A stretch of 32,000 nt of DNA from Nitrosopumilaceae archaeon (GTDB taxonomy: Archaea > Thermoproteota > Nitrososphaeria > Nitrososphaerales > Nitrosopumilaceae). A program made the position numbers and the translations under genes. Below, one piece after another: positions 16,424 to 25,343 of the stretch (position 1 is its first letter; every line of letters starts with the position of its first letter). The stretch lies in the NCBI GenBank assembly GCA_035631875.1, contig DASQHX010000001.1:5655-37654 (forward strand). Reading direction: 5' to 3'. The notes beneath the pieces were generated by a model. That model did not search any database and was not told the origin of the DNA. It saw only the letters and a list, made by a program, of their open reading frames with translations.

Positions 16424-16706
16424 GGTGCGTGCTAGACGTAACCCTCCTTCTGTTTTCACGAGATTCAGCTATGCGGCCTACCTAAACCAAGTGCAGCGCT
16501 TTTAGTTTTGTTTGGCCTTGCTCCCTGTGGGTCAGCTTTTTCACTCCTTACCGGAAACCTCAGGTTTTGCCATCACAGTACGCCGGGTCGGATTTTTTTC
16601 TGTTCTGTAGCCAGCCATCTCTGACTATCCATCTCTGGATCACATTTACTGCATGGAGGGAGGAGTTTCCTCTGCCTTAGCAGTAGCTCGTTCACCAGCT
16701 CGCACC
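16424..16706 (-). ncRNA. rnpB: RNase P RNA
   Basis: Minus strand begins GGUGCG and ends CGCACC (P1 pairing), contains 'GGCAGAGGAAACUCCUCCCUCC' (CR-I/P4 5' strand) and 'ACAGAAGGAGGGUUAC' (CR-V/P4 3' strand), with CCCUCC/GGAGGG pairing. Confidence 0.93.
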
Positions 16707-19768: not shown

Positions 19769-22700
19769 CTATTTAGACACGTAAGTAATCTGGTAGTAGA
19801 ACCTAGAGGGTTGGTCTTTCTTAATAATTTGTACATTAAATTGTCCATCTTGAATTACACCGTTTTCATCTGCAGGTAAGATTGTAAATTTCTCCAGTCT
19901 AGCCCCAGAACCAGTATATCCGACCAAAAAGTTTTGGTTACCGATTTGGATTGTTTGATATAGTGAGCCAGAGTTTTGTGTAGAGCCTGTAATCTTACAA
20001 TTAGGATCCTGACCAATCAAGCAGGTTCCATCTTCAAAAGTCACCTTAAGGCTAACATTTGATTCATCACCAGAATTTACACGTAATAAACCATCAATCA
20101 TTCTTGGATAGAATGTACTATTTCCGACAGTTTTTTCCTTAATGGTTATTGGTATAAATGAATCTGTTATTCTATTTACCTTGTCAACTGTTATAGTATT
20201 GGAAAGAATTGTTTTCTGAGTAGGTCCAATGGTACTTGGTTTTATCGATGGAGTAGTTACTTGCGGTATTCCTTGTGTTGTGTTTCCTTGCGTAGTATTT
20301 CCTTGAGTTGCATTTACTTGAGGAGGTGTCACTACATTTGGTAATTGATTTACAACTTGGAATGGAGCACTAAACACACCAAAGGGAGCTTTGGCCATTA
20401 CAACATAGTTTCCAAGTTTTGCATTATCAGGAATTTTATAATTATAACTAAAAGAACTTGTTTGATCAAAAGGCACCGTAGCTTTTGGTAATACATTACC
20501 TGCCTTTGATACCACTTGTCCTTCACTTATGATGGTATCATTTGCAAGACCAACAGAAATATCAACAGAGTTAATTGATATTATGAAACTTGTTCTTCCA
20601 GTAATTAAAACAGTCTGACCTGGAAGATACTTGTCATTATCAGTTGTCAACAACAATGAAAGTTTACTTGATGAAGTAGTAAACGGATCAGTTACGTTAA
20701 AGCTTGCCTGTGAGGCTACTCCAAGATAGTTTCCGTATATCTTGTATGTTCCAGTTTGAAATATTCCTGGACGCAATTCTATTGAAGTTTGAAATTGACC
20801 TCCTGGGTTTACTTGTACTGTTGCTCTGGAGGCCTCCTGTCCAGTACCAGTATATACAACAATGTTAATCAGAGTATTTTGTTCAAGTGCAGCAGCATTA
20901 ACTTGCGGTATTACTTGACCAAAGACTCGCACTGTTTGAGTAGTTGTATAATCTGTCTTGTCTGTCTCTAGGAAAAATGGTGACAATTTGGTTTCTGATT
21001 GTGGATTTTTAGAAACGCCGAAGAACAAGTCAGTTTTAGCATGATTTGAGCCAATGGATATTCTATAGATTCCAAATGTGTTTGGATAATTATTTATGGT
21101 TACAACATTTTGTCTGCCAGAGTTGATTATAGTTGCAAGAGTTCCTCCAGTAGTAGAAGAATTAGGTATTGTCCAATCCCAAGAGAAGAATCCATTGGTT
21201 ATTGTTAAGGGGTTTGTGATTATACTGCCATCAGGCAGTGTTAATGTAATTGTGTATGATGACGTATCTACAAAACTAGATAGTTTACCAGTCAGATGCA
21301 CTGTTTCTCCAACGCCATAGACTTGTTTATCAGTACTTGCTACTACAGCTTGATTTCCTGTTACTAACGGATCATAAACTGAAAACGATGCAGTAGTTGT
21401 CAGTTTATTATATGTGGCTTTTAGAGTATACGTACCTGGTTCAAAGACACTACGGTATAATGTTTCTTGAATTTTGTAGTTACCATTGCTATCAGGATAT
21501 GCGTAAAATGTCAGAGGGGTATTTACCACACCTGATCCTATTCCTCCTGAAAGATTTGGACCAGTATTAGCTTTTGATATTAAAGCTGTACCATTTCCAT
21601 TCAATACTGTAATAACAAGACTAGTGGCGGTTGTGACTTGATTTGATGCAATGTTACCTGAAATAGCAACGGAGTCTCCTATTGCATAAGAGGATTGATC
21701 TGTTGTAATGGATAAAGGTCCTGAATTTGTTGCTACAAAAATACTTGGATTTTGTACTACATGAAAGTCTGCTTCTGTTTTATAGGATTTTTCAGATATT
21801 ATTGCTCTGTAGCTTCCAAATCTATCTGTCACACTTGGAATTGGTAATGTATATGTAAATGTACCATCTGATGAAACATTTAATGAACTTTTTACGTCAT
21901 ATGTTTGTCTAACAACACCTGATGTATAGGATTGTACTATCTCGATTTGAAAGTCATTCACTCCAATCAAATTTGTACGGCCTGAAATTGTTACAGTGTC
22001 ACCTAATCCATATGCTTGTTTGTCTGTAGTTACTACTATTGGAGCACTCAGAGTTGGCTGCGGTATTAGATTAAACCAAGTAGTTGTTGTAGCTGTATCA
22101 TATTTTGCAACAATATCATATGTTCCATAAACAGGATTTACTGAATTTAAAACAACACCTGATGAAGTAGATGTATGATGAAAATAATTATAAGAAGTAA
22201 TTCTTCCTTGCGAATCAGGATACAAGTTTCCATCGTAAACTTTGACATTATTAGGATCATATACTGTGTACGTTACAGCAGTAAGCGGAATAATTTTTGA
22301 GACGTTTCCTATAATAGTTATCGGATCTCCCAAAATGTAAGATGGTTTATCAGTGCCAAATGTAAGTTTAGTTTGTGCTTGTTGTGGTGGAGGAACATAT
22401 GCTTGTGCATTTAAGACAAATTGTGTAGCTGCTGATGCATCTGAATAAATCACAGAAACATTATAGTCTCCTTCTTGAAATCCCAATAGCGGATCAGTTT
22501 TCAAATCTGTTTCAAATTGAAGGTTATTGTTAGGATATGCTGTAATTGTTTTTTGAAATCCAGGGCCTGTAACAAGTATGCGAATTTGTTCTGGAATATA
22601 ACTTAGATTTGGTATGTTAACTTGTTTTGAAACTTGACCGCTTATTTTTACTATATCACCAAAAACATAGCTTGTTTTATCAGTTGTAACTGTAATACTA

Positions 22701-23245
22701 AGTACGGAAGAAGTTCCAGCTGAAACTAGTTTTCCATTTGAACTACCTGTAGTTGCTATTTTGAATACCCAGTCGCTAGTAGAGTTTGTATTAAATCCAT
22801 CTGCAATTCTCTGCCAAGTGTTAAAGTCATTTTTCTGATCATCTAGTGGTGGAGTTTGGTCTACGACCATACCATTTGCATCTTTTAGTTGAATAACTGC
22901 ACCAATATGTGGAAACCATGATGGTCCATACGTATATGTCAAAAATTGTCCGCTTTGAATATTTGTACCAGCAGAAATTGTGTATGTATTTCGTAATCCA
23001 GTTGTAGCTCCAATTGTCCAACCACCAATGTTAACTGGTTCGGATGTTGGATTATACAGCTCTACCCATTGTGATATTGATTTAGAATCATCACCTGGAG
23101 GATCTGTTTCAACTTCATTTATCACAACATGATTAGCAATAGAACTTAGTTGGCCCATTACAGGATTTACTTGAACACACAGCATGACTACTGCCAAAAA
23201 TCCAATTACAAGATATAATCTAGGGTCTCTCATCTGCACTATCAT
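19769..23245 (-). CDS. Large secreted protein: Lamin-tail domain plus ~7 Ig-like/MG2-like repeats
   Basis: Signal peptide 'YLVIGFLAVVMLCVQVNPVMG'; LTD-like 'VVINEVETDPPGDDSKSISQWVELYNPTSEPVNIGGWTI'; repeated '(T/S)TD..-Y--G--V-I-G' motifs. Confidence 0.85.
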   Translation of the reverse strand: MIVQMRDPRLYLVIGFLAVVMLCVQVNPVMGQLSSIANHVVINEVETDPPGDDSKSISQWVELYNPTSEPVNIGGWTIGATTGLRNTYTISAGTNIQSGQFLTYTYGPSWFPHIGAVIQLKDANGMVVDQTPPLDDQKNDFNTWQRIADGFNTNSTSDWVFKIATTGSSNGKLVSAGTSSVLSITVTTDKTSYVFGDIVKISGQVSKQVNIPNLSYIPEQIRILVTGPGFQKTITAYPNNNLQFETDLKTDPLLGFQEGDYNVSVIYSDASAATQFVLNAQAYVPPPQQAQTKLTFGTDKPSYILGDPITIIGNVSKIIPLTAVTYTVYDPNNVKVYDGNLYPDSQGRITSYNYFHHTSTSSGVVLNSVNPVYGTYDIVAKYDTATTTTWFNLIPQPTLSAPIVVTTDKQAYGLGDTVTISGRTNLIGVNDFQIEIVQSYTSGVVRQTYDVKSSLNVSSDGTFTYTLPIPSVTDRFGSYRAIISEKSYKTEADFHVVQNPSIFVATNSGPLSITTDQSSYAIGDSVAISGNIASNQVTTATSLVITVLNGNGTALISKANTGPNLSGGIGSGVVNTPLTFYAYPDSNGNYKIQETLYRSVFEPGTYTLKATYNKLTTTASFSVYDPLVTGNQAVVASTDKQVYGVGETVHLTGKLSSFVDTSSYTITLTLPDGSIITNPLTITNGFFSWDWTIPNSSTTGGTLATIINSGRQNVVTINNYPNTFGIYRISIGSNHAKTDLFFGVSKNPQSETKLSPFFLETDKTDYTTTQTVRVFGQVIPQVNAAALEQNTLINIVVYTGTGQEASRATVQVNPGGQFQTSIELRPGIFQTGTYKIYGNYLGVASQASFNVTDPFTTSSSKLSLLLTTDNDKYLPGQTVLITGRTSFIISINSVDISVGLANDTIISEGQVVSKAGNVLPKATVPFDQTSSFSYNYKIPDNAKLGNYVVMAKAPFGVFSAPFQVVNQLPNVVTPPQVNATQGNTTQGNTTQGIPQVTTPSIKPSTIGPTQKTILSNTITVDKVNRITDSFIPITIKEKTVGNSTFYPRMIDGLLRVNSGDESNVSLKVTFEDGTCLIGQDPNCKITGSTQNSGSLYQTIQIGNQNFLVGYTGSGARLEKFTILPADENGVIQDGQFNVQIIKKDQPSRFYYQITYVSK

Positions 23246-24635: not shown

Positions 24636-25022
24636 TTATCTTAATGCTCCAACTATTACACTTAAAAAAGCTCTACCTCCAAATATAGAACCTAATGACA
24701 AACCTACATTTGTGATTATATTAATTGCCATTAAAGAATATTGTTTATTATCAATCAAGTCAGATGTTTCCAACGCAAATGAGGACATTGTAGTTAGTCC
24801 GCCACAGAACCCTATTGCAACTAGCAACATATACTTGTCATCAAGATTCCATTGTTGTGAAAGAACTGCGAAGCCTCCAAGAATAAAACTTCCCACTATA
24901 TTCACGATTAATACGTTTACAGGCAATACCCCAAGAAATAATGGAGATTTTGTTATCCCATATCGTAGAAAAGTTCCAGCCAATCCACCTATTGCTAGAA
25001 ACATTATTTCAATTCCCTTCAT
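24636..25022 (-). CDS. crcB: Fluoride channel/exporter CrcB (Fluc)
   Basis: 'AIGGLAGTFLRYGIT', 'PVNVLIVNIVGSFILGG', 'GFCGGLTTMSSFALET' Fluc motifs. Confidence 0.95.
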   Translation of the reverse strand: MKGIEIMFLAIGGLAGTFLRYGITKSPLFLGVLPVNVLIVNIVGSFILGGFAVLSQQWNLDDKYMLLVAIGFCGGLTTMSSFALETSDLIDNKQYSLMAINIITNVGLSLGSIFGGRAFLSVIVGALR

Positions 25023-25076
25023 ATAGAATCACTTTTCTGGTGAAATTGATTTTCTTTTTGATTTTTGTTTGTCATT

Positions 25077-25108
25077 TGTCTACCTGTTTAATTTTCATTA
25101 GGTAGACA
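25077..25108 (-). promoter_or_regulatory. Candidate expression-platform hairpin overlapping the aptamer 3' core
   Basis: Perfect 9-bp inverted repeat UGUCUACCU (25108-25100) / AGGUAGACA (25085-25077) with a 14-nt loop; arm 1 contains the aptamer's pseudoknot strand and CUAC. Confidence 0.6.
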
Positions 25109-25164
25109 TTATCAGCATCTTCTGATGCGGTTTAGGATTTCCCAAGGCTAATGTCATAGCCTGC
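25101..25164 (-). promoter_or_regulatory. Fluoride riboswitch-like aptamer (crcB motif)
   Basis: Minus strand 'CAGGCUAUGACAUUAGCCUUGGGAAAUCCUAAACCGCAUCAGAAGAUGCUGAUAAUGUCUACC'. AGGCU/AGCCU stem, GACAUU(25155-25150)/AAUGUC(25110-25105) pseudoknot, GCAUC-AGAA-GAUGC hairpin, and conserved AAAC-GC...GCUGAU...CUAC, as in the crcB motif. Confidence 0.88.
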
Positions 25165-25182
25165 AATCACATAATTTTATCA

Positions 25183-25191
25183 TATTTTTAA
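25183..25191 (-). promoter_or_regulatory. Candidate TATA box of the riboswitch-crcB-DUF190 transcript
   Basis: 'TTAAAAATA' on the minus strand, centre ~25 nt before the first aptamer base (~25162). Confidence 0.5.
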
Positions 25192-25269
25192 GCCTTTGTT
25201 ACAAGTTTCATTATTATTTTGGTTACAATGTGAACAAATCAAACCTAAGATGTATTGAATACAAAATAA

Positions 25270-25343
25270 TGGGATCGGCCGGATTTGAACCGACGACCTC
25301 AGGTACCCAAAACCCGAATCATACCATGCTAGACCACGATCCC
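25270..25343 (-). tRNA. tRNA-Pro (anticodon TGG)
   Basis: Minus strand folds as GGGATCG...CGATCCC-A; anticodon arm CGGGT-TTTGGGT-ACCTG; T arm GTCGG-TTCAAAT-CCGGC. No intron seen. Confidence 0.95.

Follow-up and report, generated by a model that had tools for sequence, protein, structure and literature searches.

A fluoride riboswitch that probably controls crcB through an overlapping short open reading frame in a Nitrosopumilaceae archaeon

The window analyzed here is a stretch of 32,000 nucleotides (nt) from a Nitrosopumilaceae archaeon (contig DASQHX010000001.1), and its reverse strand carries a fluoride riboswitch in front of crcB, the gene for a Fluc-type fluoride channel, and of a DUF190 gene. 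Judged from the sequence and its comparison with relatives, this element is probably a translational switch that fluoride turns ON and that works through a relay open reading frame (ORF), from which crcB would be reached by termination-reinitiation. Its expression platform, a hairpin that excludes the folded aptamer, is best read as the sequestration of a start site, the effect of which would be relayed to crcB through an upstream ORF (uORF) of 18 codons.

The scheme is built on the identity of the aptamer, on the mutually exclusive hairpin with its conservation and covariation, on the fixed position of a start codon beside it, on a reading frame that is open up to crcB and on the absence of a terminator. 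Transcription is predicted to start a few nt before helix P1, so that the aptamer would fold first. Without fluoride, its 3' strand UGUCUACCU would pair with AGGUAGACA, and the resulting stem of 9 base pairs (bp), which ends 1 nt before an AUG at 25075, would hide the 5' half of the site where ribosomes land, a Shine-Dalgarno (SD)-like AGGU included, and leave the first cistron untranslated. Upon the predicted binding of fluoride, pseudoknot and core would keep hold of the UGUCUACCU strand, such that about 24 nt 5' of the AUG become single-stranded, while for the A-rich stretch following the AUG little pairing is predicted in both states. Ribosomes would then begin at 25075, read 18 codons and stop at the UGA within an AUGA, the AUG of which is the crcB start codon. 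Reinitiation at this codon would be the step on which crcB depends. DUF190 would follow, 1 nt past the crcB stop.

Aptamer and alternative hairpin

The Rfam covariance model RF01734 recognizes the aptamer over its full length (model positions 1-64 of 64) with 41.4 bits against a gathering score of 34 (E 2.2e-8), one of three Rfam matches above the gathering score in the whole window. An original prediction, made from the letters of the window, had named a crcB-type fluoride aptamer here, and the covariance-model check that it had proposed bears it out. Across 50 relatives, 87% of the cells in the aptamer helices are paired, and the observed covariation score was reached by none of 500 shuffles. 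P1 is 95% paired and P2 shows UA/CG/UG exchanges. The pseudoknot of GACAU with AUGUC is 99.6% paired, and in loci L060 and L068 as well as in all 15 metagenome examples described below, an A-to-G change in the loop is compensated by a U-to-C change in the tail. Note that an extra hairpin, P1a, is present between P1 and P2 in every archaeal aptamer seen here and appears as an insertion in the Rfam model. It covaries as well, with GC/AU/UA exchanges at three of four pairs (alignment A1, columns 20-37; window 25135-25143), and is much larger in L060, L100 and L115. All tested features place the aptamer in RF01734, with fluoride as the predicted ligand.

The 3' strand of this aptamer has a second partner. 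Its segment UGUCUACCU (25108-25100) is perfectly complementary over 9 bp to AGGUAGACA (25085-25077), the arm that contains the SD-like AGGU, and the two enclose a loop of 14 nt (25099-25086), exactly as originally described. As four pseudoknot nt (UGUC, 25108-25105, within the strand AUGUC at 25109-25105) and the CUACC core strand lie in the hairpin, aptamer and hairpin are mutually exclusive. The minimum-free-energy fold contains the hairpin, which by itself contributes -10.6 kcal/mol, and folding of the leader has a z of -3.55 relative to shuffles. According to a folding model that takes no account of pseudoknot or ligand energies, the 3' arm is 4% unpaired in the predicted ensemble and 58% unpaired when tail and loop strand are withheld in order to mimic the bound state, and under the same treatment the unpaired share of positions -13 to +3 around the uORF AUG rises from 41% to 70%. 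The hairpin loop also holds an AUG of its own (25098-25096) that opens an 8-codon frame, MKIKQVDK (window 25074-25098, minus strand), with a UGA overlapping the uORF AUG as AUGA. This frame is probably not meaningful, because in most relatives it ends earlier, at a UAG within the 3' arm.

Relatives were collected by a scan for CrcB proteins in one genome per archaeal and bacterial species, which gave 80 loci, 71 of them archaeal. The archaeal loci come mostly from Nitrosopumilaceae and Nitrosotalea, and the closest is 97% identical. A pattern for the 3' core of the aptamer located a riboswitch in 51 of the 80 loci and in the window. The Rfam gathering score was passed by 17 of 20 sampled relatives that bear the pattern, and a riboswitch at the gathering threshold was found in none of 20 crcB loci lacking a pattern match. 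The riboswitch is thus not universal in the family, and the loci without it include those of marine Nitrosopumilus (L062-L067) and second crcB copies. Two copies of crcB occur in some genomes, e.g. REEA57 and MFD01231.bin.3.58 (L047-L049, L052-L055, L065; L018/L044, L008/L048), where the second copy has no riboswitch and stands after a gene for a protein of about 280-300 amino acids (aa), usually overlapping it or separated by a gap of a few nt.

Independent support comes from RNAalifold, which on 50 sequences predicts the hairpin together with P1 and P1a, and in the 50 relatives the hairpin is 94% paired, whereas sliding the partner lowers this to 25-43%. When metagenomes were scanned for aptamers whose loop reads GGCAUU, 15 further, more distant riboswitches of archaeal type were obtained. 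Their tail reads GCCUACC, which keeps the pseudoknot, and the arm is altered in step to GGUAGGC or GGUGGGC; three metagenome cases combine a tail GCCUAUCA with the arms UGAUAGGU, UUGGUAGGU or UUGAUGGGU. In these examples the arm ends 2-12 nt 5' of a crcB ATG, GTG or TTG. With the distant archaea included, a register-anchored alignment of 32 distinct arm pairs has two-sided changes at four of ten pairs (21 cells), although the register was picked by the best helix and leans towards structure, and none of 500 shuffles attained the cell count or the covariation score, a significance that rests on the distant sequences. The compensatory changes that the original prediction had proposed to look for in the stem were thus found with the distant archaea, whereas in the 50 Nitrosopumilaceae-type sequences both arms are nearly invariant and covariation is not above that of shuffles.

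In total, a helix between the aptamer tail and the segment at the first start codon is found in 64 of 66 archaeal examples. In L069, from a Bathyarchaeia genome (about 2460-2540), the tail AUGCCUU pairs with AAGGCAU, which is not on the upstream side of the start codon but covers crcB codons 2-4; this locus is below the Rfam gathering threshold. As judged by comparison, the hairpin is a conserved alternative to the closing strand of the aptamer that covaries in distant archaea, and the proposal of an aptamer/anti-aptamer switch is upheld to this extent.

A short reading frame between hairpin and crcB

From the end of the hairpin to the crcB ATG at 25022 the distance is 55 nt. This value had been given correctly in the original prediction, together with the argument that simple occlusion of a ribosome-binding site (RBS) cannot explain the hairpin. 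The argument fails, as it missed the AUG at 25075-25073, 1 nt after the 3' arm of the hairpin. This AUG opens the 18-codon uORF, whose stop codon UGA (25021-25019) overlaps the crcB AUG (25022-25020) as AUGA (25022-25019). The relatives likewise counter the dismissal of RBS occlusion, for there the unit of hairpin and AUG stands at the start of crcB or of real long genes. Like the window, 50 of 51 loci have an ATG behind the tail-pairing segment, the exception being L069. Of the 51 cases scored, 44 have a distance from 3' arm to ATG of at most 2 nt, six one of 4-5 nt and one of 15 nt. The hairpin-proximal ATG is the start of crcB in six loci (e.g. L045, L068), it opens a long ORF in 24 loci, and in 21 cases (20 loci and the window) it opens a short ORF of 16-66 codons. 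Most of the long first ORFs encode either a protein of about 390 aa that has no Pfam match and begins with a signal anchor, or a plastocyanin/cupredoxin protein of 345-510 aa (PF00127), with an overall range of 340-510 aa for the long first genes. The same hairpin, the 1-nt spacing and the A-rich continuation are found at these starts of real proteins, and the start context of the window uORF is therefore like theirs. First ORFs of the Nitrosotalea type, the membrane-anchored protein of about 390 aa or the PF00127 protein, are found in L006-L009, L012, L014-L016, L032, L039-L044 and L061, with crcB located further 3'; the two proteins are unusual members of the fluoride regulon.

All 21 short ORFs are open up to the crcB start. 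They end in an NTGA overlap with it in 17 cases and 1-8 nt upstream of it in four, and the start-to-start distance equals 2 modulo 3 in 20 of the 21. The set comprises about 11 forms that differ in length and peptide sequence. With the interior shuffled, the probability of an open frame ranges from 0.005 to 0.50 per form, and its product over 12 distinct forms, with the frame requirement left uncounted, is 3e-13, which is not a strict P value, the forms being related by descent. That open frames were kept in every one of the short ORFs argues for selection maintaining the frame; a neutral remnant would behave otherwise.

This bears directly on a reading in which the anti-aptamer hairpin is genuine, while the short ORF is a relic of no importance, initiation of crcB takes place at its own AUG and the hairpin acts in another way, for instance through RNA stability or long-range folding. 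An SD-like GUGAU is indeed located 5 nt 5' of the crcB AUG, the folding prediction leaves about half of the crcB start unpaired in both states, and the peptide sequence differs between forms. Furthermore the uORF resembles what a deletion would leave of a longer first gene: L017 retains the N-terminus MNTKNQKQKLGWYKNL together with the 3' end of the gene for the ~390-aa protein, and several of the short ORFs look like remnants that persisted after deletion of a gene between riboswitch and crcB. A leftover, however, would gather stop codons and frameshifts, and yet the frames of about 11 forms are open and end at the crcB start. The GUGAU motif varies even in the closest relatives, being AUGAU in L004 and GCGAU in L005, and no alternative partner for the freed 3' arm was found near the crcB start. 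We consider it quite unlikely that the uORF is a mere leftover. A model with three states, with the 3' arm pairing after its release with the ribosome-binding region of crcB, was also tried and was rejected, as there was no convincing complement and constrained folding gave weak and scattered pairs.

It is very improbable that the short ORF encodes a functional micropeptide that is co-regulated with CrcB, the overlap being ordinary operon packing. Conservation of the ORF as an open frame would be expected in this case too, and the bridge ORFs of Nitrosotalea have a C-terminal motif in common, but this motif is missing from the window peptide, and what the forms have in common is only a K/N-rich start that is dictated by the A-rich RNA. 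Their lengths vary from 16 to 66 codons, and in the six closest sequences the differences in the second half are mostly amino-acid-changing. Given that no peptide sequence is conserved from one form to another, the micropeptide was judged unlikely. The motif itself, KTKNVVNLSNxxxSQV (DNA AAAAATGTAGTTAATTTAAGTAAC), is common to the bridge ORFs of L007, L011, L014, L015, L020, L023 and L032 and could be a peptide or an RNA element; the start of the bridge ORF in L007 resembles a decayed copy of the riboswitch-proximal start.

Where a long first gene precedes crcB, bridge ORFs with an ATGA at both ends connect the two in L014, L015, L032 and L061, and translational coupling up to crcB appears to have been selected repeatedly in this group. 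The nucleotide composition behind the start codon is distinctive as well. In 46 loci, whatever gene follows, A makes up 69% and G 6% of the 27 nt behind the hairpin-proximal ATG (window 25046-25072), compared to an A content of 32% further inside the long genes. In the six closest sequences these 27 nt are invariant, synonymous sites included, whereas 13 of the next 27 vary. An A-rich and invariant stretch points to a constraint at the RNA level, and it suggests a requirement for an unstructured landing zone.

Mode of control

With respect to the type of output, no site resembling a terminator turned up in a consensus scan of the leader, and the sequence that follows the hairpin is A-rich. Between hairpin and crcB the longest T run is 3 in the window and at most 4 in 20 of the 21 short leaders, so that neither a U-tract of the bacterial type nor an archaeal oligo-U tract is present. 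The original prediction of a hairpin lacking a terminator U-tract stands. Intrinsic termination was rejected, given that the leader has no terminator-like site and its T runs in the window do not exceed 3. What the platform does offer is an aptamer strand that can pair alternatively with the ribosome-binding region of the first cistron, the arrangement of a start-site-sequestering platform.

The main output could also be transcriptional, in that an untranslated A/C-rich leader would give rise to factor-dependent premature termination (FttA/aCPSF1 polarity) and fluoride would set the amount of full-length mRNA. This would parallel bacterial Rho-dependent riboswitch control, and it can coexist with the translational model. 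Polarity does exist in archaea and is attributed to FttA in the review PMC12548453, which cites Santangelo 2008 and Sanders 2020. The composition of the leader after the AUG, its predicted lack of pairing and the RNA-level constraint on its first 27 nt are all compatible with such a mechanism. The untranslated stretch before crcB, however, is just 55 nt long and has no U-rich tract, and a pure termination model needs neither the conserved frame nor the NTGA overlaps, both of which are explained by a hand-over of ribosomes. As the main output we regard premature termination as unlikely.

Several observations weigh against the translational relay, in addition to the limits of the folding and covariation analyses given above. 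In the folding prediction only about half of the region of the crcB AUG is paired, whichever state is formed, and because this AUG is not strongly structured, independent initiation there is possible to some degree. In L012 and L016 a stretch of 50-133 nt is left before crcB and no bridging ORF is present. Polarity mediated by FttA on the untranslated leader may act together with the translational effect. The remaining points concern the SD-like motif. AGGU (GGUGG in L068, L129 and L136) resembles an SD sequence, and SD-like motifs are rare before the genes of the window. Most of these genes are without such a motif and many look leaderless or short-leadered, and the use of SD sequences looks weak in the lineage. 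An enrichment test on the ORFs of the window and the loci was confounded, as its AGGU peaks came from the homologous riboswitch/crcB loci, while the genes of the window alone are too few for such a test and include no 16S gene. Sequestration of an SD sequence is thus less secure than sequestration of a start site, and the model rests on start-site occlusion and not on SD pairing.

That most mRNAs of these archaea look leaderless or short-leadered and make weak use of SD sequences leads to a broader reading, which is conceivable but rather doubtful. Riboswitch, hairpin, AUG and A-rich stretch would then form one indivisible module for initiation at the 5' end, with internal cistrons fed only by termination-reinitiation. 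After deletion of the gene behind this module, selection would have kept a relay ORF, meaningless as a peptide, that reaches exactly to crcB, and its translation may shield the transcript from FttA polarity. If this is true, a single RNA switch would control elongation of the transcript as well as its translation, which would be the archaeal equivalent of the translation-linked Rho control of bacterial riboswitches.

Transcription unit and related systems

The original prediction had placed the aptamer at the start of the crcB-DUF190 transcript, and the promoter region is in agreement with this. A BRE/TATA-like element (TFB recognition element and TATA box; AAAA-CC-TTAAAAG, TTATAAAT or similar) is found about 30 nt 5' of P1 in the window and in nearly all of the 66 aptamer-bearing loci. 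From the usual archaeal spacing between TATA box and start, transcription would begin at about 25167-25164, 3-6 nt before P1. Aptamer, crcB and DUF190 lie on one strand with crcB in the transcription unit of the aptamer, and the gap between the crcB stop and the DUF190 start is 1 nt (TAA-A-ATG). About 70 nt 5' of the riboswitch promoter and on the same strand is a tRNA-Pro(UGG) gene that ends in the T-run ATTATTTTG, a terminator-like site, and L001 has a tRNA-Pro neighbor too. A tRNA gene with a terminal T-run just upstream argues for a separate promoter of the riboswitch unit. Elsewhere in the window, an archaeal RNase P RNA (RF00373, 188.5 bits) was found at 16427-16703 on the minus strand, and an ORF of 1158 aa at 19769-23245 on the same strand has an N-terminal signal-like segment and many Ser/Thr-rich repeats that look like beta-sandwiches; its product is probably a large surface protein.

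Table 1. Features of the riboswitch locus (window coordinates)
Feature	Position	Strand	Basis
Predicted archaeal promoter	25184..25200 (BRE-like AACAAAGGC 25200-25192; TATA box TTAAAAAT 25191-25184)	-	BRE-like element and TATA box
Fluoride riboswitch aptamer RF01734	25096..25170	-	Rfam match; pairing and covariation in 50 relatives
P1	GGCU 25161-25158 / AGCC 25149-25146	-	
P1a (extra hairpin)	GGG 25143-25141 / UCC 25137-25135	-	
P2	GCAUC 25128-25124 / GAUGC 25119-25115	-	
Pseudoknot	GACAU 25155-25151 with AUGUC 25109-25105	-	
Sequestering (anti-aptamer) hairpin	25077..25108	-	Minimum-free-energy fold, RNAalifold consensus, pairing in relatives
Putative relay uORF, 18 codons (MTNKNQKENQFHQKSDSI)	25019..25075	-	Translation; open frame conserved in relatives
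crcB (Fluc-type fluoride channel), 128 aa	24636..25022	-	Pfam PF02537, E 1e-22
DUF190 gene, 104 aa	24320..24634	-	Pfam PF02641, E 5.5e-20
tRNA-Pro(UGG), boundary of the riboswitch unit, outside it	25270-25343	-	ARAGORN; Rfam tRNA match

A fluoride riboswitch of Thermococcus kodakarensis was reportedly described by Speed et al. in 2018. Like the element in the window it is archaeal and located upstream of fluoride-export genes, but it belongs to a different phylum. In the later papers PMC8241225 and PMC11549558 it is called the sole natural archaeal riboswitch tested experimentally, and 'presumably' translational. The literature searched, the coverage of which was incomplete, yielded neither a thaumarchaeal fluoride riboswitch nor an archaeal arrangement of riboswitch and uORF, a result that speaks only weakly for their absence.

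Bacteria have fluoride riboswitches of the translational type in which a hairpin sequesters the ribosome-binding region, in front of eriC-F in Pseudomonas syringae and in Burkholderia pseudomallei (PMC12667848). They have in common with the window element the helices P1 and P2, a pseudoknot between P1 loop and 3' tail, an ON logic for a fluoride exporter, and a 3' tail with the ribosome-binding region as its pairing partner in place of a terminator (PMC12667848). The element described here differs in its archaeal host and in the extra, covarying P1a between P1 and P2. Moreover the start that would be sequestered is that of an 18-codon relay ORF and not of the exporter gene, the stem is only 1 nt away from the AUG, and a reliance on a canonical SD sequence is uncertain. 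The transcriptional crcB riboswitch of Bacillus cereus has the same aptamer, and there too the 3' strand of the pseudoknot is part of a downstream hairpin. In B. cereus this hairpin is an intrinsic terminator with a U-tract, whereas in the window it is followed by an AUG and an A-rich coding stretch.

A bacterial parallel to the arrangement as a whole is the B12 riboswitch of Mycobacterium tuberculosis ppe2, which controls a uORF (uPPE2) that serves as a ribosome landing pad, with PPE2 translated mainly via reinitiation at an AUGA (PMC11260477). As in that system, the short uORF, which the riboswitch of the window would control, has a start within the expression platform and a stop that overlaps the downstream start as AUGA, an overlap of this kind being present in the 17 short ORFs mentioned above. 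The ppe2 system is bacterial, responds to B12, is an OFF switch and has been demonstrated experimentally, whereas the window element is archaeal, would respond to fluoride as an ON switch and is known from comparative evidence. Overlapping gene pairs were found to be strictly coupled in 13 of 14 cases tested in Haloferax volcanii and Escherichia coli (PMC6728339), and translational coupling fades past a spacing of about 30 nt (PMC12548453). The ATGA (-4) overlap is the very arrangement that was shown to couple translation strictly in the gene pairs of Huber et al. 2019 and 2023, although those consist of two real protein genes, while the upstream partner in the window is a non-conserved peptide that apparently serves as a relay alone. 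The locus thus represents a known riboswitch class with a known control logic, in a variant that is undescribed for archaea or for fluoride riboswitches in an incompletely covered literature.

How archaeal riboswitches convert the binding of a ligand into a change in expression is still largely unknown, and the window locus with its 65 relatives provides a concrete and testable answer for one archaeal group: the closing strand of the aptamer would hide the start of the first cistron; where this cistron is not the exporter, the signal would be relayed by ORFs that overlap one another in a chain. Natural variants are at hand as ready controls, with direct fusion to crcB, with relay ORFs of 16-66 codons and with long first genes, and the riboswitch unit is also found in Candidatus Nitrosotalea strains (L007, L029), in which experiments may be possible. 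Where a riboswitch hairpin has neither a terminator nor a gene start nearby, one should look for a short ORF before invoking an unknown mechanism.

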